From a virus (lineage: Duplodnaviria; Caudoviricetes), in the IMG/VR virus record IMGVR_UViG_3300035396_000833, positions 1 through 36,899 of that record: a stretch of DNA of 36,899 nt. The stretch is one strand, 5' to 3'. Both the position numbers and the translations under genes were made by a program. Under the pieces are notes generated by a model. It did no database searches and was not told where the DNA came from. It was given only the letters and a program-made list of their open reading frames with translations. Shown here piece after piece: positions 9,836 to 36,157 of the stretch. The first letter of the stretch is position 1. The number at the start of each line of letters is the position of its first letter.

Positions 9836-9926
9836 AACCCTCAACCCCTAACCCCTTCTCCCTATAACAAGGAGAAGGGGAACACGGGCGGAAATGATTA
9901 ATTGTAGGCGCGTAATGCTTACGCCC
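9836..9926. repeat. CCCTC-type element (9836-9898) plus GTAG REP (9904-9926)
   Basis: CCCCTTCTCC-loop-GGAGAAGGGG hairpin, GGAAATGAT, then GTAGGCGCGTAATGCTTACGCCC. Confidence 0.8.
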
Positions 9927-9972
9927 GGTAATAACGGCGGTTCGCCCGAAAATAATAAATTGGAGAAAATAA

Positions 9973-10446: not shown

Positions 10447-10711
10447 AATTTGTTACTCGAGATGTTTTTTATGTGTTGTATGTTGTTTGCTGGTTGTTAG
10501 ATGTGAAATTTGATTTACTATCAAGCAAATGTCATAAATATGTTGGAGATGGTTAAGAGGATTATCGTTTGCATTGCTGTTTTCCGCTATAATTTTTAAT
10601 AAATCTTAATAAATCTTTTATCATTCTGACAACTATTTTATTATTCTTTTATTGTTTTTTTGTTGTTAATTTGTTACTTTGGTTTTAAAGCTAACCTATT
10701 GGAGTAACAAA
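10445..10711. other. Putative attP region with arm-type repeats
   Basis: AT-rich, non-coding, upstream of int; TTAATTTGTTACT at 10445 and 10666; inverted AGTAACAAA at 10703. Confidence 0.5.
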
Positions 10712-11821
10712 ATGGCAACTGCTATCAATATAATTAAAGAACTTGATAAAATCAATTATCAAAAATATTTAAAAGTTCGAGCAAAGAAACTTACTAATGG
10801 CGGTTATTCGGTTTATCTCGACATCTGGCATAATGGGAAGCGGCAATATATCTTCTTGAAAATTCGTTTGCAGAATATTCCGTCCAGCAGGGATTCAGAT
10901 ATTGATTTATTGCGTTTGGCTATTGCGATCAGAGACAAGAAAGAAATTGAATTGATTAGTAATTCTGCCGGCTTTGAGGTTGCTGGTTCCGGTAAGGCTG
11001 ATTTTCTGGCCTACTTTCAATACTGTTTATCTAAGCGGGAAAAAGAAGCGCAAAATCATATTAATGGCAATTGGTACGGAACTCAAAAAAAGCTTGTTGA
11101 ATTTAGTAACAACCGGGTAACATTCGCGGATTTGGACTATAAATTTTGTAAGCGGTTTTTAGAGTTTTTGCAAAGTAAGGATTATAAGCCGGCAACTGTT
11201 CAGAGTATGTATTGCAGTATTTTTAAGGGCGTTCTTAATCGGGCGGTTAGAGATGGCATTATTCCCAAAAATCCAGCCGATGGGTTGACGGTTCCGGTTC
11301 CTGACTCTGAAAGACAATTTTTAACTTTTGAAGAACTTAAACAGTTGATTTCTACGCCTTGTAATCATCCAGAAGTTTCCGCAGCGTTTTTATTTAGTTG
11401 CTGGACTGGCTTGCGGCATTCTGATTTAAAAAACTTATCTTTTGATCAGATCAAAGATGGTTATATCGGTTTTAAACAGGCTAAAACGGGCGGAGTGGAG
11501 CGAATAAAGTTATCTGAAAACGCTTTAGCAATTATCGAAAGACGACAGGTGAACAACCACGGTAAGTGTGTTTTTAAAGTACCGCATTTGCAATGGGTTA
11601 ACCGGCAGTTAAAACTGTGGGTATTGTCAGCCGGAATAACCAAACATATCTCTTTTCATTGCGCCAGACATACCTTTGCTACGCTCTGTCTGACCTATGA
11701 TATTGATTTATTTACTGTGAGTAAGCTATTAGGGCATAGAGATATTAAAACGACTCAAATCTATGCTAAATTGATTGATAAGAAGAAGGATGAGGCAATT
11801 GATAAGCTGCCGAAGATTTAA
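10712..11821 (+). CDS. int: Tyrosine integrase (arm-binding, SAM-like and catalytic domains)
   Basis: TGLR, K, HCARHTFAT, LLGH, TTQIY catalytic residues; N-terminal YSVYLDIWHNGKRQY arm domain. Confidence 0.95.
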   Translation: MATAINIIKELDKINYQKYLKVRAKKLTNGGYSVYLDIWHNGKRQYIFLKIRLQNIPSSRDSDIDLLRLAIAIRDKKEIELISNSAGFEVAGSGKADFLAYFQYCLSKREKEAQNHINGNWYGTQKKLVEFSNNRVTFADLDYKFCKRFLEFLQSKDYKPATVQSMYCSIFKGVLNRAVRDGIIPKNPADGLTVPVPDSERQFLTFEELKQLISTPCNHPEVSAAFLFSCWTGLRHSDLKNLSFDQIKDGYIGFKQAKTGGVERIKLSENALAIIERRQVNNHGKCVFKVPHLQWVNRQLKLWVLSAGITKHISFHCARHTFATLCLTYDIDLFTVSKLLGHRDIKTTQIYAKLIDKKKDEAIDKLPKI

Positions 11822-12717
11822 AGATCAAGTTTTTGTTGTTCGCCTCTTGGAATGTGTTTTAGTACTTTTAATATTTCGTATTCTTTGTTTACAAATGTAT
11901 TAACCGATTTATCAAATTCCTGTTTAATTTTTAAATCCACAAACAGGGCATCGCCTTTGCCGAATCTTAAACCGTTGTCTATTAATCCAAAGAAACTTTC
12001 ATCAATCATTAGTGCGGAAATTCTGTTGCCATCATAAATAAAAGACCAGCGGTGTTTTACTTCCATTACTATTTTGAAGATGTTTATAGTTGCCTGTTTA
12101 GTGATATAGCGGTGTGTTTTATCATCGAAATGTACATTGCCGCCTATGGTTTCAAACTCTGTTGACGGTGCTTTAAATAATGATTTTTTGTTTTTATCTA
12201 AAATGTTAAAAGAGGTTATATTTTCATCTTTTGCCATGTATGCAAAGATATTGCCGGTATATTCATTGATCTTTTGACCTCTGTCAGCGGTTGTTAATAC
12301 CACAAAAACACTATCAACTGTGGCGGTTTTATCTTCATCATTGGTTACTTCGACTTTATTGTCAGAAAGTTCTTTAGTTGCCTTTGGTGGTTTGCCTTTT
12401 AAGAATTGACGATACGAAAACAGACCGCCGACTATTGCCATAAGTGCAGCCGAATACTCTACATTGTCTTTTGAAAAGATGCTTAATAGAGTTTTGCCTA
12501 AAGACGATATAATATCAATATTCACATCAAAACTACCAGGAGAAAAACTCTTTATTTTAACTTTGATTTCAGTGTCTTTGCTGGTAATGCTGTTGATCTG
12601 TTGATTAACTTCTTTTAAAAGTTCGTTGAAATTATTTAAGGTATAAATAAAAGTGTCCGCGTCAATTTCGTTAGTTTTGCCATCGTATTTTATTGTAAAT
12701 AATTCAGATTTTTGCAT
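11818..12717 (-). CDS. Hypothetical accessory protein, 299 aa
   Basis: Long ORF with AAGGA RBS; I.YDG, GSF and C-terminal W.F...D..F....F.KGD.L motifs. Confidence 0.7.
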   Translation of the reverse strand: MQKSELFTIKYDGKTNEIDADTFIYTLNNFNELLKEVNQQINSITSKDTEIKVKIKSFSPGSFDVNIDIISSLGKTLLSIFSKDNVEYSAALMAIVGGLFSYRQFLKGKPPKATKELSDNKVEVTNDEDKTATVDSVFVVLTTADRGQKINEYTGNIFAYMAKDENITSFNILDKNKKSLFKAPSTEFETIGGNVHFDDKTHRYITKQATINIFKIVMEVKHRWSFIYDGNRISALMIDESFFGLIDNGLRFGKGDALFVDLKIKQEFDKSVNTFVNKEYEILKVLKHIPRGEQQKLDL

Positions 12718-12735
12718 TTTACTTATTTCCTTAAT

Positions 12736-13197
12736 TTATCGTAATTTTGCGTTTAATTCTTCGAGTTCTGCAAGGTGTTTCTTGGTCGCATACTTGTTGA
12801 CAATAAACTGATCATTGGTTAATATTAGTAATACTTGCTTATTAGACTGTTCAAATTCACGAACATCTATTACCGTTACATTGTTCGGTGGAGTGTATGC
12901 CTGAAATTCTAATTCTTTATATTTGTTGATACTTTCTATTATAGTTATATTACTAGCTGTGGATTGCCCGTTTATAATATACTCATAACCCTCTAGTTCT
13001 TGAAAAATAACATCAACGCCAGTATCGCTTGTAATAGCAAACCAAATTCCACCATCATCATGGGAACGCCCGATAATCAACCCACCTTTGCGGACATCTA
13101 TTGTGTAAAACTCGGTAGATTGTACTAATGTTTCAACTTTAACGAAAGGATTTATATTGTTACGAAAACTTTCTAAAACAAAATTGACTAAGCTCAC
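12736..13197 (-). CDS. Hypothetical protein resembling the tape-measure C-terminal motif
   Basis: AAGGAG RBS, GTG start; GGLIIGRSHDDGGI...ELEGYEYIIN. Confidence 0.7.
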   Translation of the reverse strand: MSLVNFVLESFRNNINPFVKVETLVQSTEFYTIDVRKGGLIIGRSHDDGGIWFAITSDTGVDVIFQELEGYEYIINGQSTASNITIIESINKYKELEFQAYTPPNNVTVIDVREFEQSNKQVLLILTNDQFIVNKYATKKHLAELEELNAKLR

Positions 13198-13443
13198 TGA
13201 TTCTCCTTGTAATGGAATTACCCCAAGAGTTGATTATACACAAGGCGGTTTGGTTAGATTTGATCTTACACAAGATGGCTTGGCTGGTGAGGGCTTAAGG
13301 ACAACATCGCCAATGACAGAAGCCGAACTTGATGCTTTAATTGATAAATTAGTTGCTTCTAATTCCCTTTAATTACCAGCCCTCGGAGTCTCTGAAATTC
13401 AGCGGTGTGCTTTGCCGAAATTCCACGATGTTTGATTTAGAAG

Positions 13444-13797
13444 TTACCCGGTATTTTTTTTTTCCGCAAGATGATTATGCGCGCAGGCATCTTTTATTAT
13501 GCTTTTGAGCAATTCTAAATTCGCCTCCAGCTTATCGATAACCTTTTGCAATTCCGCACAGTTCGGGCATTCCCCCTCTGGCTGATCCGTGAGAAACATC
13601 GAGCCAGTGCCGGTGAGGAGCCAGTGAAGGTTGATGTTATAGGTGGATACAATTTTGTCTAATACCTCTTTTGTTGGTATTATATCACTTTTTTCGTAAC
13701 GATAAATAACTGATTTTTGCACACCAACTACTTGTCCGAGTTCTTCACCGGATAAATTTAAATAATCTCTAAACTCTTTTAGCCTTAAACCGAGCAT
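13444..13797 (-). CDS. XRE-family HTH repressor, paralog 2
   Basis: LRLKEFR..LNLS..ELG...YEK..INLHWLLTGTGSMFL; CPNC; start assigned by alignment to 15854-16135. Confidence 0.88.
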   Translation of the reverse strand: MLGLRLKEFRDYLNLSGEELGQVVGVQKSVIYRYEKSDIIPTKEVLDKIVSTYNINLHWLLTGTGSMFLTDQPEGECPNCAELQKVIDKLEANLELLKSIIKDACAHNHLAEKKNTG

Positions 13798-13810
13798 ATA
13801 AATTAAAATA

Positions 13811-13862
13811 ATGCAAAATTGCATCCTTTTTTCTTGACAGGGTTACAAATTTGTATTATCTT
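13811..13862 (+). promoter_or_regulatory. Sigma70-type promoter with palindromic operators, copy A
   Basis: TTGACA(13834)-17-TATCTT(13857); TACAAATTTGTA at 13844-13855; ATGCAAAATTGCAT at 13811-13824. Confidence 0.75.
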
Positions 13863-13928
13863 ACCCTTGTAATTAAGTTTACTGTAAACTTGATTTAGTA
13901 ATGATCATTGAAAATATAAGGAGGTTTT

Positions 13929-14033
13929 GTGAAACTAACAATTTGGTCGATAATTAGAAATAATAACCTACGAGTAAGCTATAAAGTGATTGCCATCTTT
14001 AAGACGCTTTTCAATTTCAAGAATCGCATTTAA
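13929..14033 (+). CDS. Possible 34-aa basic peptide
   Basis: AAGGAGG then GTG; MKLTIWSIIRNNNLRVSYKVIAIFKTLFNFKNRI; downstream of promoter copy A. Confidence 0.35.
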   Translation: MKLTIWSIIRNNNLRVSYKVIAIFKTLFNFKNRI

Positions 14034-14119
14034 AGCTTCTGGCTTGAAGTGCTGTTTTTTAACCAATTTTTCTGTAATAGTCTTACAGTGCTTTAATTTT
14101 GGTTAAATCCTTTTGTTCT

Positions 14120-14407
14120 CTACATTCTATTTTTTAGCAACTCATAAAAGTTCTCTCTTTTGGATATAGCTAAAAATAATATGGTGACAATTTGATCGTT
14201 AACCAAATAAGCAATTCTGTATTGCACACCGTTACAGCCGAAATGATAAGACCTAACACCGGACAGATTGCCGGTTAACGGACTGCCGGATTGAGGATTG
14301 TTAACAATTTCCGGGATGCAAACATCGTGGATTTTATCAACAACCTGCTTGTCCAGCCGTTTGATATCTTTTTTGACTTGCGGATGATATTCTTTAGCGT
14401 ACGCCAA
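14120..14407 (-). CDS. RelE/ParE-family type II toxin
   Basis: KKDIKRLDK...NP..G.PL.GNL.G.RSYH...YRIAY...I..RENFY. Confidence 0.9.
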   Translation of the reverse strand: MAYAKEYHPQVKKDIKRLDKQVVDKIHDVCIPEIVNNPQSGSPLTGNLSGVRSYHFGCNGVQYRIAYLVNDQIVTILFLAISKRENFYELLKNRM

Positions 14408-14585
14408 AAACTTCCTCGTGTGTCAGGGTTTTTACTCTGCCACTTTCAATCTGTTTTTTGCGTTTAAGTATCTCTTTATCGTCCCTGGTTTCTAAAAGAT
14501 ACAATAACTTAGCTTTTGCCTTATCATTAAGATTAGCAATCATTTCAGCTAGTGTTTCAATCTCTATTTCGGCTGTGATCTTCAT
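14394..14585 (-). CDS. Cognate antitoxin
   Basis: 63 aa, overlaps the toxin start; C-terminal IESGRVKTLTHEEVF. Confidence 0.8.
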   Translation of the reverse strand: MKITAEIEIETLAEMIANLNDKAKAKLLYLLETRDDKEILKRKKQIESGRVKTLTHEEVFGVR

Positions 14586-14590
14586 TTTCT

Positions 14591-14620
14591 CTATTCCTTA
14601 TCTATAGTGATCTTGAGTTT
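14591..14620 (-). repeat. Cassette junction repeat C (repressor 3'-end remnant)
   Basis: 30 of 30 nt identical to 15293-15322. Confidence 0.9.
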
Positions 14621-15077
14621 AATCTTTACTTTGTAAATCTTTTGTTTGCTGCTTTTTGCCGTAAACAAACATACCTACTAATGCTAACACTGTTGTTGAA
14701 CCGAATAGTCCGCCCACTACTGGTTGACCATTTAAAGCAAGGTACGAGGCAGAGGTTATAAAAGTTAATGCCAAGACAAAGCCCATTATTTGACCGCGTG
14801 TACTTTCTTTGAGCTGAGTAGTAATTGATAACCTTTCTAACTCTATACGGTGTTTTTCTTGTTCTTCATACCGCTCAAACAACACTCTTGCCGCCTCTGG
14901 ATGAAGCTTTTGATAATGCTCAATCATCTGTGGCGGTGGAAATGGTCCCGAATAAGAGTATGAAACTTGACTGATTCGGGCAATGGCAATTCCAAGTTTA
15001 TCTTTGGGAATTAAATCAATAAAGGGCTTTAATTCATCTGGAACAACTGGCTGTATTTCTTGATTGTGTTTACTCAC
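14619..15077 (-). CDS. DUF2335-like membrane protein, copy 2
   Basis: YSGPFPPP..I..Y....P.AA......E..HR, RGQ..GF, two TM helices. Confidence 0.85.
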   Translation of the reverse strand: MSKHNQEIQPVVPDELKPFIDLIPKDKLGIAIARISQVSYSYSGPFPPPQMIEHYQKLHPEAARVLFERYEEQEKHRIELERLSITTQLKESTRGQIMGFVLALTFITSASYLALNGQPVVGGLFGSTTVLALVGMFVYGKKQQTKDLQSKD

Positions 15078-15288
15078 TCTTAAGCTTCTTTAGTAAATTG
15101 CCGAAACTTTGACCAATTACACCCCATGAAGAATTAAACGCCTTACGATTTGCCTCTTGTGGCGTTTTTGAAGTGTTAAATTTGTAGTAGTTTCCCCAAA
15201 TATTAAAACAACTCCCAATACCTGTTGTGATACTGCTTTTGGAAGCAAGAAAATTTGTTTGATATTTTGGTTTACTATAATCTGTCAT
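15070..15288 (-). CDS. Small partner protein of the DUF2335-like gene, copy 2
   Basis: Overlaps the downstream gene; G...FN.WG...EA......IGQ shared with 15655-15849. Confidence 0.75.
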   Translation of the reverse strand: MTDYSKPKYQTNFLASKSSITTGIGSCFNIWGNYYKFNTSKTPQEANRKAFNSSWGVIGQSFGNLLKKLKSE

Positions 15289-15326
15289 ATTCCTATTCCT
15301 TATCTATAGTGATCTTGAGTTTGCTT
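15285..15326 (-). repeat. Cassette junction repeat B (repressor 3'-end remnant)
   Basis: 37 of 42 nt identical to 15846-15887; reads SKLKITIDKE* in the repressor frame. Confidence 0.9.
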
Positions 15327-15683
15327 GCGGGATTTACCCGTGAACATAGAAAGCATTGGTATTAGCGCGGTTACTAATGTAACAAAACCGCCAATTTGTT
15401 TGTCGAGATATAATAGAAATATACCACCGGACATACTGCCTAACACCATGATGAAGCCTAGAATTAAACCAAGGGTATCGTTACGGGTTGCAGTATTTAC
15501 AATCTTGGTTTCAACAAAACGCCTTTGATCACTTTGTTTGTAGAAATCATCAAATATTTGCTTAGCAGTACCGGGTACAATTGATTCATAATGTTGTATT
15601 ATATTGGGTGGTGGTAATGGTCCAGAATAGTGCAGACTGGTAACAACTTGTTGTTTATTTGATTTGTGCTTTGTAGGCTTCAA
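15300..15683 (-). CDS. DUF2335-like membrane protein, copy 1
   Basis: YSGPLPPP.II..YE.IVPG.A..I, two TM helices. Confidence 0.85.
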   Translation of the reverse strand: MKPTKHKSNKQQVVTSLHYSGPLPPPNIIQHYESIVPGTAKQIFDDFYKQSDQRRFVETKIVNTATRNDTLGLILGFIMVLGSMSGGIFLLYLDKQIGGFVTLVTALIPMLSMFTGKSRKQTQDHYR

Positions 15684-15849
15684 TTGTTCTCCTTAAGTCT
15701 TGCCCGATTGTTTCTAAGTCTGCCTTGTATGCTTCAACATCGCTATGCTGTTTAATTGGGTTGGCTATTCTGCCCCAGTTAAAAAGCCTGCGCATACCGC
15801 CTAAGAATGACGGCATTTCAATGTATTTAAATGATGATGACTGTTTCAT
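15655..15849 (-). CDS. Small partner protein of the DUF2335-like gene, copy 1
   Basis: SFLGGM.RLFNWG...SDVEAYKADLETIGQDL; starts 4 nt after the repressor stop. Confidence 0.75.
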   Translation of the reverse strand: MKQSSSFKYIEMPSFLGGMRRLFNWGRIANPIKQHSDVEAYKADLETIGQDLRRTIEAYKAQIK

Positions 15850-15853
15850 ATTC

Positions 15854-16135
15854 CTAATCCTTACCTATAGTGACTTTAAGTTTGCTTCCACAGTTGGGGC
15901 AGTGTAAGCCGGTATCCGGGAGAGGCTCTAAGAACATACTGCCGGTGCCGGTTAGGAGCCAGTGAAGATTGATGTTGAAAAACTCTACAATTTTGTTTAG
16001 TACATCTTTATTGGGCAAAGTGTCATTTAGTTCATATCTTGATACGGCAGACATAGCAATATTTATCTTATCCCCAAACTCTTTTTGAGTAAGATTAATA
16101 CTTTCTCTAATATTTTTTAGCCTTAAACCGATCAT
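15854..16135 (-). CDS. XRE-family HTH repressor (CI-like), paralog 1
   Basis: LRLKNIR..INLTQKEFG...VSRYE...INLHWLLTGTGSMFL; CPNCG; divergent from the early operon. Confidence 0.9.
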   Translation of the reverse strand: MIGLRLKNIRESINLTQKEFGDKINIAMSAVSRYELNDTLPNKDVLNKIVEFFNINLHWLLTGTGSMFLEPLPDTGLHCPNCGSKLKVTIGKD

Positions 16136-16150
16136 AATTTTAAAAAACTA

Positions 16151-16200
16151 TACAAATTTGTAAAATATTGCTTGACAACTATACAAACTTGTATTATCTT
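16151..16200 (+). promoter_or_regulatory. Early lytic promoter with two operators, copy B
   Basis: TTGACA(16172)-17-TATCTT(16195); TACAAATTTGTA at 16151-16162 and TACAAACTTGTA at 16182-16193. Confidence 0.8.
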
Positions 16201-16232
16201 ACCCTTGTTAATTGAGTTTCACACTTGATTAT

Positions 16233-16423
16233 AAGTTTAGGGCGGCACGGTCGCCAAACTAGTCCGCCCTGAACTTTCCCGTTCATTGACATATCGCTTC
16301 TGACTAACCGGTTTGTTTCAATCCTTGTTTTACTGGATTGGAAATAGTCCGCTAAAGAAAAGCAATAGTCAGGTCAAGCCGCGTACAGACTCTTCCTATT
16401 TATAATATAAAACAAGGGAGAGT
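16233..16423 (+). ncRNA. Putative structured leader RNA of the early operon
   Basis: Hairpin 16233-16276, multi-stem element 16300-16372 and hairpin 16389-16423, folded by eye. Confidence 0.45.
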
Positions 16424-16462
16424 TAAAAACAATTAAATTAATTATTAAATAAGGAAAATAAC

Positions 16463-16720
16463 ATGCTTGTGTTAAACAAAAAGACGGTTGTGTTTGACCC
16501 TGATCAGTGGTATTCCTATAGAGATATTGCCCAAAAACTTAATATTGATATCAAATCTCTTGAATACATGGTTAAGCACAGCCCAGATGAATTGACCGCG
16601 GTTAAATTCGGTCCACGAAACACCCGTTTTAACGGGGCAGAACTAAACAATTTTATCAACAACCCGGCTAATCACCGGTATAATCGTAAGGTTAAGAAAA
16701 TTAAGGATGAGGCGGTGTAG
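16463..16720 (+). CDS. Excisionase/AlpA-like HTH protein (Cro position)
   Basis: WYSYRDIAQKLNI...L.AVKFG.RNTRF...EL..FI. Confidence 0.7.
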   Translation: MLVLNKKTVVFDPDQWYSYRDIAQKLNIDIKSLEYMVKHSPDELTAVKFGPRNTRFNGAELNNFINNPANHRYNRKVKKIKDEAV

Positions 16721-16721
16721 G

Positions 16722-17216
16722 ATGGATGAAGTTTCTATTCGGGGATATTTAATACCTGCAAAAAACATACTTGCCGAATTAAAAATCGGTGATCGTCACT
16801 ATTACTATGTTAAAGATGGTATCTTCAACAATGGATCAAAATGCGTTGCCAGAATGGAAAAAAATCGCAAGGACAAAGATTGCGCCGTACTGACAACTAT
16901 TGAAGAAAGCATCACTAATACTAAAAGTGTTTTTGCTAAAAAAAGAACCATCCTTGAAAATTTCATCAACTCACCGGAAAACAAAGCAATTGGGAGTGCC
17001 GAGTTTTTTACACCAAATACAAATAGTGTATGCTACTGGAAACCCATCAATGATATAGTGGATAGGCTTTGGCATATTTGCAAAAAATACGCTGTGAAAA
17101 TATCAAGAAACGAACTTGGCAAATATAAAGCTGCCAATCTTTGCGATCTATGCGAGTTGATGTTGGGCGGAAAGCTTAAAAATCGGCAATACATCCTTGA
17201 GCATTTAAAATCCTAA
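16722..17216 (+). CDS. Hypothetical protein
   Basis: ORF coupled within the early operon. Confidence 0.6.
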   Translation: MDEVSIRGYLIPAKNILAELKIGDRHYYYVKDGIFNNGSKCVARMEKNRKDKDCAVLTTIEESITNTKSVFAKKRTILENFINSPENKAIGSAEFFTPNTNSVCYWKPINDIVDRLWHICKKYAVKISRNELGKYKAANLCDLCELMLGGKLKNRQYILEHLKS

Positions 17217-17233
17217 ATTACGAGGTTCAAATT

Positions 17234-18052
17234 ATGAACGAATTAACAACAATCAAATTTCACGGTGCCGATCTGGTCACTGTTAATAAGGATGGCAAAA
17301 TCCTTGTGGCAATGAAACCGATTGCAGAACATTTGGGGCTTGACTGGAATGGTCAGCTCCAAAGAATTAAACGAAATCCGACACTAAAAAGGTCGATGTG
17401 CATAATACACATTGATACCACAGATTGTGGAGACAGGGAAGCCACGGCACTACCGCTTGAGTTTTTGAACGGTTGGTTGATGGGCGTTTCGGTCAATCAA
17501 GTCAAGCCGGAAATCAAAGACCGGTTAATGGAATATCAAGACGAATGTTACCAGGCCCTCCACGACTACTTTTTTAAAGGCGTTGCCATCAATGACCGCC
17601 GGATCGCGGAACTGGAGACGGTTAATCATGGCTTGACTGATAGAGTTCAGACCTTAAAAAACGAATTGGATAAAACGGTCGATAACTTTGATCGGCTCTA
17701 TTACAATGCTCTGGACGGCAAAAAAGAGTTGCACGATAAAGTTGTTACCCTGGAACAGCAAGTAGGAGAACTCCAGTATGAAAACGGAAGGCTGGAACTC
17801 AAAATTATTGAGCAGAACGAAATTCCTGAATGGCTTTTAAAGGAGCATGTAAGGAAAAGGGCTCAAACTCTTGCACAAAGTGCCAAGGTTGAAGTAAAAA
17901 CTGTTCATATTAGGATTTACGAATACCTAAAAAATCACCACAATTTTAATGTAATGGAAGAATCTGAATATTATGCCAGCAAACTTGATGCTATTGAAGC
18001 AAAAGGATTATTGCCGGTTGTTAAAAAATTCTTGGATAGGCAGGGGGCTTGA
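17234..18052 (+). CDS. ant: Antirepressor (P22 Ant N-terminal-like domain) with coiled coil
   Basis: I.FHGA.L......VAMKPI.E.LGLDW..Q..RIK; LPL..LNGWL; YQ.ECY..L.DYF. Confidence 0.88.
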   Translation: MNELTTIKFHGADLVTVNKDGKILVAMKPIAEHLGLDWNGQLQRIKRNPTLKRSMCIIHIDTTDCGDREATALPLEFLNGWLMGVSVNQVKPEIKDRLMEYQDECYQALHDYFFKGVAINDRRIAELETVNHGLTDRVQTLKNELDKTVDNFDRLYYNALDGKKELHDKVVTLEQQVGELQYENGRLELKIIEQNEIPEWLLKEHVRKRAQTLAQSAKVEVKTVHIRIYEYLKNHHNFNVMEESEYYASKLDAIEAKGLLPVVKKFLDRQGA

Positions 18053-18053
18053 T

Positions 18054-18377
18054 ATGAGTGTTGAAGAAGCTTTAAAAACGCTAACAAATGCCGGCTGGAA
18101 TGTTGAGCTAAGTAAACCGCAACCAAAGGTTATACGCTACAACATCAAAGAAGTTGCTGAAAAAATGGGATATAGAAGCATTCAGACGGTTTACTCTCTG
18201 ATCAATCCGATACACGGAAAAGCACCAAGAATGAAATGCGAGCGAGTGGGTGGAACGGTTTATATTCACCAGTCACACATTGACGAGTATTTGAACCGTA
18301 AGGGCAAGATCAGTAAAACAAAATCTGATTATGAAGCCGAGGCGGAAACTAAAATTATTTGCGGAGAAGTGAGATGA
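18054..18377 (+). CDS. Excisionase-like HTH DNA-binding protein
   Basis: YNIKEVAEKMG...TVY.LI...RVGG...I..S.I.EYL. Confidence 0.7.
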   Translation: MSVEEALKTLTNAGWNVELSKPQPKVIRYNIKEVAEKMGYRSIQTVYSLINPIHGKAPRMKCERVGGTVYIHQSHIDEYLNRKGKISKTKSDYEAEAETKIICGEVR

Positions 18378-19165
18378 AAAGTAACGATTTAAAAGTAACG
18401 ACAATAGATATCGCTTTGAACACAGGGGTGGCGATGGATTTTTTGTATAATCGGTTTGGTTTGGGAAGAAGAGATACTATTAGCGTAAGCGATTTACTAG
18501 TGAGGACAAAGCGAGCAGAATCACTTTCAGCTCCCTCTCTAAAACATAGATTCAAACCAATAATCGACTACTGCAAAACGGCGATACAACCCAAACCGGA
18601 AATAAAGGAAGTTGCAGCTAAACCTGAAACAATATCAAACAATACGCCAAAGAACGAACATCTATATACAGCTAAACAGCTTGCCGATATATACAAATGT
18701 CCGATTGGCATGTCGTATAAAGCATTCTCTTTCGCAAAAGATGGGGAATTGATTACAAAAATATCTGATGGAAATGGGCTAATAACCAAAACTTCTTCTA
18801 TTCCTGCTTTCATGACCTGCTTAAAAAGAGTTTTAGAAAGCGACAAAGGGGGTGGTAATTACACCACTAAGGCTAAAGAAATACTAAACGCCTATAAAAA
18901 ATACAATTTGGAGCCCGTAATTAAACCTATTAAAGAGTTGCCTGAAAATGAAAGCAAACCGGATTTAGAAACCATATCAAGCAATATGCACGATTTGATC
19001 AACGAAATAAAAGGCTTGAAAAGATTTATATACAGCGGGATTGAGCTAAATCAAGAACTCGTTGAACTCCAAAGAAAACGAAATGAAATAGCAGAAAAAC
19101 ACAACGAAATAGCAGAAAAACACAACGAAATAGCCCTAAAACAACTGGAGGTATGGACTAAATGA
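18374..19165 (+). CDS. Hypothetical protein with C-terminal coiled coil
   Basis: ATGA overlap; 21-bp tandem repeat encoding NEIAEKH. Confidence 0.65.
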   Translation: MKSNDLKVTTIDIALNTGVAMDFLYNRFGLGRRDTISVSDLLVRTKRAESLSAPSLKHRFKPIIDYCKTAIQPKPEIKEVAAKPETISNNTPKNEHLYTAKQLADIYKCPIGMSYKAFSFAKDGELITKISDGNGLITKTSSIPAFMTCLKRVLESDKGGGNYTTKAKEILNAYKKYNLEPVIKPIKELPENESKPDLETISSNMHDLINEIKGLKRFIYSGIELNQELVELQRKRNEIAEKHNEIAEKHNEIALKQLEVWTK

Positions 19166-21005: not shown

Positions 21006-22106
21006 ATGGCAAACGAAGTAGCAACAAAACAGACTTTTTCTAACTTCTTAACTTCTCCGGTGGTTAAGCAGAAAATAAATGAAGTGATTGGCGGTGCAGG
21101 CGGTCAGCGGTTTATGACACAAATTCTTTCCGCTGTTACAAATAATCCAGCCTTGCAGGAATGCGAACAGATGACAATCTTCAATTGTGCGCTTTTGGGT
21201 GAGGGTTTAAAGCTCTCCCCTTCTCCGCAACTTGGACAATACTACATGGTTCCGTTTAAGGACAAAAAAAACAACCGGACGGTAGCGACATTTCAACTCG
21301 GTTACAAAGGCTATATTCAACTGGCTATCAGATCTGGGCAATATAAAAAGCTGAATGTTCTGGCAATCAAACAGGGTGAACTGATTAATTTTGATCCACT
21401 TAACGAAGTGATTGAGGTTGATCTTATTCAAGATGAAGTAGTCAGAGAAAACACGGCAACCGTTGGTTATTACGCAATGTTTGAATATACCAACGGATTT
21501 AGAAAAGCAATGTACTGGTCAATCGCCAAAATGATGGCTCACGCAAATACTTATTCGGCTGCCTTCTCTTCTGAAAATTATCAAAAGTTAAAAGATGGTA
21601 AAATTCCGCCGTCTGATATGTGGAAATACAGTTCTTTCTGGTACAAAGATTTTGACGGTATGGCATATAAAACGATGTTGCGCCAGTTAATCAGCAAATG
21701 GGGGATCATGTCAATTGATATGCAGACCGCCTATGAAAGCGACATGGAAATTAAAGACGAAAAAGGGAAAAATCTTTATCCGGATAATGACGGTGACAAT
21801 TTTGGCATGATCGAGCCGCAAGAAGTTCAAGCAGATGCTAAAAACAAACTGGATGCCTTGAAAAATCAGAATAAAAAAGAACCCGAAACCGCCACGGTAG
21901 TTGAGCCGGAACCAAAGGTAAATAAAGAAACTGGCGAGATGAAAATGAGTAATAAAGATAAATTGACTGTTATGTTAGAACCTCACGCTGTTAATATCAA
22001 TTACTTTGTACAGGAAAATGGGCTTGACGGAAATGACGACGATTCTTTAAAATTGATTGTTGAAAATGACAAACTGTTTAGAAGTTATCTGAAAAAATGT
22101 ATCTAA
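21006..22106 (+). CDS. recT: RecT-family single-strand annealing protein
   Basis: LGQYYMVPF, FQLGYKGYIQLAIRSGQY, FDGMAYKT motifs. Confidence 0.92.
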   Translation: MANEVATKQTFSNFLTSPVVKQKINEVIGGAGGQRFMTQILSAVTNNPALQECEQMTIFNCALLGEGLKLSPSPQLGQYYMVPFKDKKNNRTVATFQLGYKGYIQLAIRSGQYKKLNVLAIKQGELINFDPLNEVIEVDLIQDEVVRENTATVGYYAMFEYTNGFRKAMYWSIAKMMAHANTYSAAFSSENYQKLKDGKIPPSDMWKYSSFWYKDFDGMAYKTMLRQLISKWGIMSIDMQTAYESDMEIKDEKGKNLYPDNDGDNFGMIEPQEVQADAKNKLDALKNQNKKEPETATVVEPEPKVNKETGEMKMSNKDKLTVMLEPHAVNINYFVQENGLDGNDDDSLKLIVENDKLFRSYLKKCI

Positions 22107-22200
22107 ACAAATCTGTGTGAACAAATCTGTGTGTAAACAAGGGGTTGCAACCCCTTGTTCAGTGATGGGATATTCCGGCGATCCACCGGATTGCCCCTAC
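22106..22200. repeat. Composite repeat cluster: 14-bp tandem, CAAGGGG palindrome and GATCC-type REP
   Basis: (AACAAATCTGTGTG)x2; AACAAGGGGTTGCAACCCCTTGTT at 22136-22159; GGCGATCCACCGGATTGCCCCTAC at 22177-22200. Confidence 0.8.
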
Positions 22201-22217
22201 GAAAGGAAAAACGAACC

Positions 22218-23126
22218 ATGAAAGATTTATCAACTATGCTAGACGGTATTTATACCGATATTTCGGACGAGGAATATTTTGGAGATAAAAGCCGGGTTAA
22301 CTGCTCAACTCTGAAAAAGGTTATTCAATCCGGTTCTACTTCTTACTTGAAACAAATCGTTAAACCAACGGAAGCAATGAGAATCGGAACTGCTTTTCAT
22401 ACTTTAGTTTTAGAACCAGCAAAATGGGATGAAAGGTTTATTGTTGTTGAAGATTATGATGGTAGAACAGCAGCCGGCAAAAAATATAAAGAAAGCCTTG
22501 GGGATGTAGTCTTCATTGATGAAAAAGGTCGAGATTCTGACGACAATAAAAGAATCGCAATGAAAGAACCAGTAAGAGCGGAATTAGAAAACCTTAAAAC
22601 CGGCTTACTGGTTGGAGCGGACGGCAAACCCACACTGGCAGCCGATCTGCTAAATCAAAAGGGCGATGTTGAGGCGGTTGTTTTGTTTACCTATCTGGGC
22701 GTTCCGTGCAAAATTAAGATTGATAAATTGCTGGAAGATTATCACTGCTTGGATGTTAAGACCTGTTTGAGTTGTAAATTGGAAGATTTTCAGAGAGCGA
22801 CTTTTGATAGAGGTTATTTTATTCAATCAGCGTTTTACAAACTGGCTTTTAAGTGTTTAACTTCTGATTTACCGGAAAAGGCTAATGTCAAATTTACATT
22901 CCTTGCGGTGGAGAAGACGGATAATATCTGGTTAAACCAGTGTTACAATACCAATATTTGGGACGCTAAAGCACAGGCTTTGATTGATTACTATCTGCCG
23001 ATCACTTATGAAGCTATGCAGACTAAAGCCTATTCGACTTATGCCGGACACAATCAGCAGGAAATTATCAGCCTTCCTTTAAGCGGCTGGATTGAAAAAA
23101 GTATTAACTCAATGCTTGGGTGTTAA
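22218..23126 (+). CDS. RecE/exonuclease VIII-like PD-(D/E)XK nuclease (DUF3799-like)
   Basis: AMRIGTAFH..VLEP, K.KID, DVKT, Y..Q.AFY, F.AVEK; adjacent to recT. Confidence 0.88.
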   Translation: MKDLSTMLDGIYTDISDEEYFGDKSRVNCSTLKKVIQSGSTSYLKQIVKPTEAMRIGTAFHTLVLEPAKWDERFIVVEDYDGRTAAGKKYKESLGDVVFIDEKGRDSDDNKRIAMKEPVRAELENLKTGLLVGADGKPTLAADLLNQKGDVEAVVLFTYLGVPCKIKIDKLLEDYHCLDVKTCLSCKLEDFQRATFDRGYFIQSAFYKLAFKCLTSDLPEKANVKFTFLAVEKTDNIWLNQCYNTNIWDAKAQALIDYYLPITYEAMQTKAYSTYAGHNQQEIISLPLSGWIEKSINSMLGC

Positions 23127-23498: not shown

Positions 23499-23783
23499 AT
23501 GGCGAATCAATTTTATAAAATGGATATCAGCAAGTGGCATGATAGAACATCGACAGAAAGAATTATGCTACACCTTCTTGATAATTGTTCTTTTAGCCTT
23601 TCAAACGATTGGTTATCTAAAACGACAGGCTTTACCGTAAAAAATATAAAAAAGGTTTTAAAACAACTGCAAGATGATTGCATTATTGAAATTATTTATG
23701 ACGGTAATCCTCACAATCAAAAAACTAAAAGAACGATAAAGATAATAAACCACTTCAAAGACACCAACTGTCCCCCACAGTAG
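23499..23783 (+). CDS. Winged-HTH replication initiator (N-terminal-type domain)
   Basis: SNDWLS..TG.....IK..LK.L.....I; immediately followed by iterons. Confidence 0.65.
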   Translation: MANQFYKMDISKWHDRTSTERIMLHLLDNCSFSLSNDWLSKTTGFTVKNIKKVLKQLQDDCIIEIIYDGNPHNQKTKRTIKIINHFKDTNCPPQ

Positions 23784-23900
23784 TCACGGTGTCCCCCACA
23801 GTAGTCACGGTGTCCCCCACAGTAGTCACGGTGTCCCCCACAGTAGTCACTTTCTATTAATACTAGATTAATTATTATATTAATTACTAGATTAATTTAA
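23769..23900. repeat. Putative replication origin: four 21-bp iterons and an AT-rich tract
   Basis: TGTCCCCCACAGTAGTCACGG three times plus a 19-bp fourth copy (23769-23850), then an AT-rich tract with TACTAGATTAATT twice. Confidence 0.8.
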
Positions 23901-26600: not shown

Positions 26601-26625
26601 GGGCGATCCACCGGATCGCCCCTAC
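26601..26625 (-). repeat. GTAG-type REP (GATCC subfamily)
   Basis: GGGCGATCC-ACC-GGATCGCCC-CTAC. Confidence 0.85.
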
Positions 26626-26679
26626 GGTTATTGTATGGACAATGTCAATACAAATAATAATTAAAAAAGAGGTTCCAAA

Positions 26680-29964: not shown

Positions 29965-29988
29965 AAATAGTTGGGTATGATGTGTGCG

Positions 29989-30008
29989 CAAGGGGTAGCT
30001 ACCCCTTG
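29989..30008. repeat. CAAGGGG palindrome
   Basis: CAAGGGGTAGCTACCCCTTG, a perfect palindrome; variant of the 22138 and 35229 copies. Confidence 0.8.
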
Positions 30009-30031
30009 TTCAGAAACGGAGTTGAGGAGTT

Positions 30032-32630: not shown

Positions 32631-33403
32631 GTGAAGTTGTGATTGAAAAAGATGGCAAAGAAATTTTGATTGAAAAGAATATTATTATCAATCAGATTAC
32701 TGGCGGCGGTGATCAAGTACAGTCTGATTGGAATCAATCATTAATCGCAGCCGTCGATTACATCAAGAACAAGCCTGTTATTCCAGCGGCACAACTCCAA
32801 GCCGATTGGAATCAATCATTAATCACAGCCGTCGATTTGATCAAGAACAAGCCTGTTATTCCTTTAAGTCTTGTTGAATTAAATGATGACGCGGATCATA
32901 GAACTGTAACTGATGATGAAAAGACTGCTTGGAACGGCAAATATATAAATGGAAATAATCTTTTAATCAGTGGAACTAACACCATTATGTTTGATGGTGA
33001 TAATGAAATATTTAGAAATGGAGACGGTGCTCTAATTTTTAGTTCATCTGCTAGTAGTTTCACTGGAAGTATTTCAGCTAGTAATTTAAGTGGAACTAAT
33101 ACTGGCGATCAAGATTTATCTAATCTTGTTATTAAAGAAGCTGGTAAAGGTTTATCGTCAAATGATTTTAAAAATGATGATAAGAATAAGCTTGACGGTA
33201 TTGAAAGCGGTGCGCAGGTTAATGTAGTTCCGACTTGGAATAGCGTAACCGATAAACCGGAAACATTTCCGCCTGCGGATCACAATCATGCCGGAATGGT
33301 TGTTAGTTCTACAATTACCAGTATCGTAACACTAACACAAACCACTTATGATGCCATACCAATCAAAGACCCGAATGTCATGTATGTAATTACAGGGGTT
33401 TAA
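32627..33403 (+). CDS. Fibre protein
   Basis: QSDWNQ..IKNKP repeats; SGTNTGDQDLS, GKGLSSNDF...KLDGIE.GAQVN, KP.TFPP..H.H, LTQ..YDA...KDP. Confidence 0.75.
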   Translation: MSEVVIEKDGKEILIEKNIIINQITGGGDQVQSDWNQSLIAAVDYIKNKPVIPAAQLQADWNQSLITAVDLIKNKPVIPLSLVELNDDADHRTVTDDEKTAWNGKYINGNNLLISGTNTIMFDGDNEIFRNGDGALIFSSSASSFTGSISASNLSGTNTGDQDLSNLVIKEAGKGLSSNDFKNDDKNKLDGIESGAQVNVVPTWNSVTDKPETFPPADHNHAGMVVSSTITSIVTLTQTTYDAIPIKDPNVMYVITGV

Positions 33404-35166: not shown

Positions 35167-35259
35167 GTAGGGGCGATCCGGTGGATCGCCCGAACCAAAC
35201 CAACGCCCGAATATGTGATCTGAGTGCGCAAGGGGTTGCAACCCCTTGTTCAGTGATGG
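35167..35259. repeat. GATCC-type REP (35167-35191) plus CAAGGGG palindrome (35229-35248)
   Basis: GTAGGGGCGATCCGGTGGATCGCCC; 35229-35259 is identical to 22138-22168. Confidence 0.85.
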
Positions 35260-35369
35260 TGATGGTGATGGCGGTGGAGCTTTCCGACATATCCGACAAT
35301 GTTTTTGTTTTTATGCTTTGTATATTATATTTGTATTTTAGAGAATATAATTAAATCAAAGGTTTAGCA

Positions 35370-36103: not shown

Positions 36104-36128
36104 GGGCGATCCACCGGATCTCCCCTAC
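36100..36128. repeat. Double-ended GTAG REP supplying the upstream stop codon
   Basis: GTAGGGGCGATCCACCGGATCTCCCCTAC; TAG at 36101-36103 is the stop. Confidence 0.85.
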
Positions 36129-36157
36129 GGTTAAATAAATAAAATGGAGAAAACAAA

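Follow-up and report, generated by a model that had tools for sequence, protein, structure and literature searches.

Repressor gene ends between cargo modules: probable scars of sequential acquisition behind the repressor of a temperate phage

Results

The cargo array and the repeats at its junctions

The stretch analysed here, referred to as the window, is the 36,899-nucleotide (nt) IMG/VR virus record IMGVR_UViG_3300035396_000833 (Caudoviricetes), a complete circular temperate phage genome with a 141-nt terminal repeat, whose genes include those for capsid, terminase, integrase, antirepressor, RecT and an exonuclease VIII-like protein (Pfam/PHROG matches). Between its early genes and its integrase gene, the minus strand of the immunity region holds an array of three two-gene cargo modules that lies directly downstream of, and co-oriented with, a repressor gene (repressor 1; 15854–16135, −), which diverges from the antirepressor and early genes. 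Repressor 1 (93 amino acids, aa) consists of an XRE-type helix-turn-helix (HTH) head (HTH_3, E 4e-13; PHROG transcriptional repressor), a NINLHWLLTG linker and a short CPNC tail. Cargo 1 comprises a small open reading frame (ORF) of 64 aa (15655–15849, −) and a DUF2335 membrane protein gene (DUF2335-1; 15300–15683, −), cargo 2 a small ORF of 72 aa (15070–15288, −) and a second DUF2335 membrane protein gene (DUF2335-2; 14619–15077, −), and cargo 3 a putative antitoxin gene of 63 codons (14394–14585, −) followed by the gene for a RelE/ParE-like toxin (14120–14407, −).

Each gene pair is headed by the last 10–12 codons of a repressor, a ribosome-binding site (RBS) and the start codon of the pair. 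Copy A (15846–15887, −) is the true 3' end of repressor 1 together with the RBS and start of cargo 1; copy B (15285–15326, −) is a relic repressor 3' end (SKLKITIDKE*) with its RBS; and copy C (14583–14620, −) is a relic 3' end followed by spacer and ATG, identical to B at 30 of 30 nt (14591–14620). Copy A differs from B/C at 5 of 30 nt, two of these changes being synonymous and the others giving V/I, G/D and D/E, so that the differences respect the repressor reading frame. The spacer between repressor stop codon and ATG measures 4, 4 and 5 nt in A, B and C, with AAGGA 8–9 nt upstream of every ATG. The DUF2335-1 stop codon lies inside copy B, that of DUF2335-2 extends into copy C by two bases, and the left ends of B and C are 4 nt apart. 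The initial annotation had reported three such copies with these positions and substitutions, had assigned to them the RBS and spacing for the next cassette and had placed the DUF2335-1 stop within the repeat, all of which we re-found. A 26-nt repeat pattern matched three times in the window (shuffle mean 0.00; none of 100 shuffles reached three), and the motif was present in none of 53 other RBS-bearing gene starts (maximum score 26.5 versus 60). Rfam returned no match. A 12/14 repeat match within the end of DUF2335-2 (14637–14650) was set aside, its score of 30 being that of shuffled background, and serves at most as a hint of microhomology.

An assembly artefact is an unlikely source of the array, because one contig (X1, possibly from the source sample) covers 11000–19000, array included, with a single difference, and because a contig from a second study (X2) runs over 15081–15366 and hence across copy B with no difference. 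Contigs of a third set (X3) are pieces of relatives with the repressor 2 tail (see below) and cargo 2, and none of them spans copies A, B or C. A loose end of an X3 contig at 13410, considered as changed cargo behind the repressor 2 tail, was dropped, since those letters are similar to window sequence found a few bases further on.

The relics as repressor termini and a second repressor unit

Searching with the repressor yielded 4 proteins, and a profile search 53, the latter adding the protein P0021. Among the repressors recovered is P0003, a full-length 93-aa repressor from an independent assembly that ends in SKLKITIDKE, the translation of copy B including all three amino acid differences from A. 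Since P0003 ends in exactly these residues, the B/C allele is, as judged from the predicted protein, the end of a genuine repressor rather than a degenerate version of A, and we regard this as our strongest result. The proposal of the initial annotation that the junction copies are leftover repressor 3' ends is borne out by this identity and by the similar tail of P0021. The repressor C-terminus, one of the probes that it had suggested for relatives, recurred in P0003; the 26-nt repeat pattern had no match in viral contigs and none in genomes. Among metagenome contigs the pattern was found in two only (L004/L005), which are not independent because they represent the same phage (9943/9944 nt). 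A profile search of representatives, dominated by multi-HTH proteins, gave no new protein with the repressor 1-type tail among the 150 matches listed.

Behind the array, 2338 bp downstream of the first, lies a second promoter-plus-repressor unit that had been overlooked in the earlier description. Repressor 2 (117 aa; 13444–13797, −; HTH_3) combines a different HTH head (23/53 identical to that of repressor 1) with a different, long tail (7/24), while the NINLHWLLTG linker is common to both. The promoter-like region upstream of it (13825–13900, −) duplicates that of repressor 1 (~16140–16230) in diverged form, with a 41-nt repeat at 85%, and the promoter-like regions of both repressors match the consensus at 10 of 12 positions. 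P0002 carries the repressor 1 head (53/53) on the repressor 2 tail (44/48), and P0003 the repressor 2 head (48/53) on a repressor 1-type tail (18/24), so that at the protein level all four head/tail combinations of the two types exist (repressors 1 and 2, P0002, P0003); in P0021 the head is of a fourth, unrelated type (9/52 identical to repressor 1) and is joined to a tail that matches repressor 1 at 18/24 positions. The reciprocal combinations show, at the level of predicted proteins, that heads and tails have been exchanged at the shared linker in this repressor family, and because P0002 and P0003 hold them, the repressor region would appear to recombine at the linker. Tail replacement, as assumed in the initial annotation, thus does occur in the family.

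Some minor features accompany the repressors. A 12-bp palindrome precedes both of them despite their different recognition heads (13844–13855, 16151–16162 and 16182–16193), its count at one mismatch not being above chance (10/100 shuffles). Small plus-strand ORFs with RBS-like sequences flank repressor 2 (13929–14033, +, 34 aa; 13157–13372, +, 71 aa) and are opposed to the cargo. Two related repressors, P0019 and P0060, whose longest contigs both measure 2878 bp, may represent a second case of tandem repressors.

The cargo modules

The three modules appear to be of mutually independent origin. Both DUF2335 proteins match PF10097 (DUF2335-1, E 8e-10, also phrog_3996; DUF2335-2, E 9e-8), and share 32 of 109 residues (29%), and the two small ORFs could not be aligned with each other (E 0.10). 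The small ORF of cargo 1, the DUF2335 partner, has no family match and resembles a Leptospira phage ORF that precedes a DUF2335 gene (phmmer E 3e-6), and that of cargo 2 also matches the Leptospira phage ORF in this position (E 1e-11) and has a close relative in P0009; homology among small ORFs was demonstrated for some pairs only. DUF2335-2 has nearer relatives in other phages (identities of 34% and 40%) than DUF2335-1 (29%), whereas the top score of DUF2335-1 is DUF2335-2, by a small margin (67.0 versus 64.7 bits, 10 compared). A small ORF directly precedes the DUF2335 gene in all 10 phage records fetched (23 matched), and the pairs reside there at varied sites, beside lysin, integrase or tail genes. 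As judged from these comparisons, the small ORF/DUF2335 pair is a mobile moron acquired twice and not a recent tandem duplicate; the initial annotation had named close mutual relatedness of the two DUF2335 modules as the sign of a simple tandem duplication, and neither the 29% identity nor the unalignable small ORFs speak for it. The nearest DUF2335 module that we found (L059:4654–5339, 40% to DUF2335-2) lies between lysis genes and an integrase gene, behind a putative toxin-antitoxin-like pair.

Cargo 3 is unrelated to the DUF2335 pairs. Of the antitoxin/RelE cassette as first described, the toxin is firm (PF15781, E 5e-19; above the Pfam and TIGR02385 cut-offs), whereas its partner is assigned as antitoxin by position alone, preceding the toxin, with a TIGR02574 score of 15.9 bits below the 31.9 cut-off and Atlas matches below 0.9. 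PADLOC matched none of the six cargo proteins. In a crude scan of 13100–16500, no terminator-like site was found (2.6 expected) and promoter matches numbered 15 (10.3 expected). Gene spacing and the lack of terminator-like sites in that scan lead us to predict that the array is read from the repressor promoter in lysogens, and its genes are predicted to be a stack of accessory, partly defensive functions.

A possible fourth copy and the end of the region

The best match in the genome apart from A, B and C (12715–12759, −) reads KRKITIN followed by two 1-nt insertions, contains the stop codon of ORF 12736–13197 and ends at the ATG of a gene for a candidate defence protein, PDC-S42 (11818–12717, −; PADLOC PDLC05015, E 2e-34). 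It scores 34.5, whereas the 53 other RBS-bearing starts average 16.9 and attain at most 26.5, and its score is reached by 16 of 20,000 local shuffles; genome-wide it is not significant, an equal match occurring in 3 of 6 shuffled genomes. This segment may thus be a decayed fourth copy, D, and is treated as a candidate only. The region is closed by a phage tyrosine integrase gene (10679–11821, +; Phage_integrase, SAM_5, Arm-DNA-bind_5).

Related loci and an analogous phage group

Searches for related loci with the repressors gave distant HTH matches only (3, 2 and 3 loci), PDC-S42 and RelE queries no relative with DNA context, blastn against annotated phages no match, and the antitoxin no match among plasmids. 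As these searches yielded no close relative for which DNA is available, differences between phages in the number or order of cassettes were not observed. When the window was scanned for repeated gene ends together with 105 loci (a highly redundant 1.2 Mb, from which L004/L005 were excluded), one other repeat of a repressor end emerged, in L028, where it consists of a whole second repressor.

We also made use of 38 loci fetched with the integrase (~35% identity), 28 of which have repressors of another family that share one conserved tail and provide 29 junctions. At 22 of these 29 junctions the first cargo gene begins at +16; first cargo genes fall into nine clusters, and five of six head types (26 readable heads) pair with three to five cargo clusters. 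Because one tail precedes nine different first-cargo clusters, the group shows that the 3' end of a repressor can serve as a boundary for swaps; for the window this holds by analogy, since those phages are unrelated to the window phage. A relic of the coding tail is present in none of the 28 loci; one of them has a copy of the spacer alone, another an entire second repressor. The loci (within L010–L042, e.g. L023) combine variable heads with a conserved tail and fixed spacer, and several internal junctions have a similar gene end plus spacer; in L028:1788–4894, two repressor-cargo blocks occur together with an integrase end that is repeated.

Discussion

A probable route of array build-up

New in this study are the second promoter-plus-repressor unit behind the array and the reciprocal head/tail combinations in P0002 and P0003. 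We regard it as probable that copies B and C are scars of ordinary, non-site-specific recombination, in which the tail of the resident repressor gave way to a block arriving from a related phage. The incoming segment, consisting of a repressor tail plus new cargo, would anchor by homology within the repressor gene, probably aided by the phage RecT/RecE functions, while its far end, the 3' end of the last cargo gene, would join inside the old tail by microhomology or illegitimately. The RecT-like annealing protein and exonuclease VIII-like gene (21006–23126, +; PF03837, E 2e-39; phrog_412) are candidate drivers of the homologous step, in view of their presence in the genome and of the use of short diverged homology by Rad52-like recombinases, as far as the accessible text of PMC3945230 describes it. 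Joins that lose any terminator and keep the old RBS would survive, so that the older cargo would stay translatable as it moves downstream, and the relic would be kept because it holds the RBS. Once formed, the 30–43 nt copies may themselves act as short homologies for the gain, loss or swap of whole blocks. On this scheme the toxin-antitoxin pair would have arrived before cargo 2, and cargo 2 before cargo 1; the second promoter-plus-repressor unit would likely reflect the same type of event with a longer leftover.

Several points weigh against this recombinational origin. There is no close relative with DNA context in the collections searched, and gain, loss or reordering at the copies was not observed there; P0002 and P0003 are proteins without readable neighbours. 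None of the 28 loci of the analogue group has such a relic separating its cargo genes; the tail there is a boundary without scars. Free illegitimate joining, unless selection or a preferred site is involved, would predict a wider scatter than the 4 nt that separate the left ends of B and C, and the identity of B and C fits integration of a circle equally well.

The last point touches on a route in which circles are the main carrier: units of cargo plus tail copy would be excised and integrated in another phage by a single homologous crossover in the tail, in the manner of PeSL mini-circles and the rhs model, the first, non-homologous capture still being required. The identity over 30 nt is what integration would leave, and PeSL circles have been documented (PMC2839356, in its accessible part). 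P0002 and P0003 are the products to be expected from a linker crossover between repressors 1 and 2 that excises the 2338-bp block, or the parents if it was integrated, yet they are not this genome's own excision products, because they differ from the window repressors (tail 44/48, head 48/53). Given also the divergence of A from B at 5 of 30 nt and the shortness of 30 nt as a recombination substrate, we consider circles unlikely as the principal route. No recombinant joint between copies was seen in the X1, X2 and X3 contigs, although assembled contigs drop rare forms and are hence uninformative on circles. The right spacing of the RBS in each copy could also suggest a reused translation-start motif or the residue of a local tandem duplication, not a record of gene capture, and the best score of DUF2335-1 with DUF2335-2 might be read in the same sense. 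Such a motif would have to explain its absence from the other RBS-bearing starts and the fact that the copy encodes the repressor end of another phage; P0003 largely refutes it, and the closer kinship of DUF2335-2 with other phages and the unrelated third cargo leave it the least probable of all the explanations considered.

The initial annotation had called the array integron-like and had named the integrase as one possible driver. Integrons are defined by attI, attC and IntI, with attC folding as a single-strand hairpin and promoterless cassettes being read from one upstream promoter. A comparable site-specific system, with cleavage by the phage integrase or a different recombinase at one defined position of the repressor tail and insertion of cassettes there, would account for the closeness of the left ends of B and C, for candidate D beginning where C does, for the right end of the copies being fixed at the ATG and for the stop codon of the preceding gene falling within or at the copy in all of B, C and D; the closeness of the left ends is the chief argument remaining for it. 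Against it, no attC-like hairpin was found at the copies on either strand, 6 of 6 folds being no better than shuffles (z 0.13 to 1.42), and of 50 inverted pairs, none of the 25 longest placed its arms inside the copies. The integrase scored 56.9 bits against the integron integrase model TIGR02249 (cut-off 265), with the match confined to residues 305–370, and with its arm-binding domain it is by these domain matches a phage-type enzyme and not an integron integrase. Together with A/B differences that follow the repressor reading frame, this makes a site-specific system very unlikely, and both the integron-like mechanism and the role ascribed to the integrase find no support. A bolder variant, that the last codons of the repressor are a dedicated capture site at which a phage recombinase joins incoming 3' ends at a near-fixed point of the tail, also strikes us as distinctly unlikely; if true, temperate phages would run integron-like cassettes from their own repressor, adding defence genes and swapping immunity specificity in one step.

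Comparison with known arrays

Ordinary recombination that displaces the repressor tail has its closest parallels in rhs loci, for which C-terminal displacement has been modelled (PMC2935791), and in the Vibrio cholerae type VI secretion system (T6SS) immunity arrays, for which sequential displacement has been proposed (PMC5361080). As far as the accessible portions of these sources go, a conserved upstream gene is the entry point for new modules, remnants of gene ends precede the older modules that have been pushed downstream, and the recombination put forward is either illegitimate with a homologous anchor or based on circles, with no integrase, much as we envisage here; in the window, too, residual 3' portions of the anchor gene head the downstream units, and anchor and tip are decoupled among relatives at the protein level. 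Unlike in those portrayals, the anchor in the window is a phage repressor, the leftover measures just 30–43 nt and acts as RBS, and the cargo is unrelated to the function of the anchor and appears intact. PeSL cassettes of T4-type phages likewise feature short direct repeats between accessory genes, with possible homologous shuffling and a role as expression signal (PMC2839356). In the portion of that paper available, however, PeSLs are intergenic promoter-terminator hairpins of lytic phages for which circles were shown, whereas the copies described here are coding relics plus RBS and contain no promoter; a PeSL-type repeat composition is absent from them, with no hairpin and no terminator found.

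The position of the cargo behind the prophage repressor is shared with lambda rexAB and with bstA, a site described in the accessible part of 10.1101/2020.07.13.199331 as a mosaic hotspot with lysogeny-expressed defence genes; that part describes one module, unlike the stack separated by copies of the repressor tail in the window. The small ORF overlapping the DUF2335 gene is the arrangement of the two-gene DUF2335 moron (PF10097, phrog_3996) also found in each of the fetched phage records, although here, unlike in a single moron, two unrelated versions are stacked in one operon. In literature searches aimed at this arrangement, with few subscription journals covered, no description of repressor-tail relics was found.

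With integrons, the array has in common an ordered series of units with the newest probably nearest the promoter, and it differs in having neither an attC hairpin nor an IntI-type integrase. The class of mechanism is already known from the rhs and T6SS arrays, such that the value of the locus lies more in the general pattern than in the single case. The array would be a readable record of cargo build-up at the best-known prophage defence site, the relics giving a presumed order of acquisition and the module boundaries; because they mark order and boundaries, they should be usable for mining repressor-linked cargo, including the unstudied small ORF/DUF2335 pair. Head/tail swapping in the repressor family would couple a change of immunity type to a change of cargo.

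Other repeats in the window

Outside the immunity region, a 21-nt tandem repeat occurs in about four copies at 23748–23850, and a tail-tip gene contains an internal 71-nt repeat (89%) at 32714–32862. Three families of GC-rich, palindromic-looking dispersed repeats, apparently intergenic, are possibly terminators or REP-like elements; they are located at 36–66, 2331–2361 and 9897–9927 (family 1), at 22176–22205, 26601–26630, 35171–35200 and 36104–36133 (family 2) and at 22130–22173, 29981–30024 and 35221–35264 (family 3).

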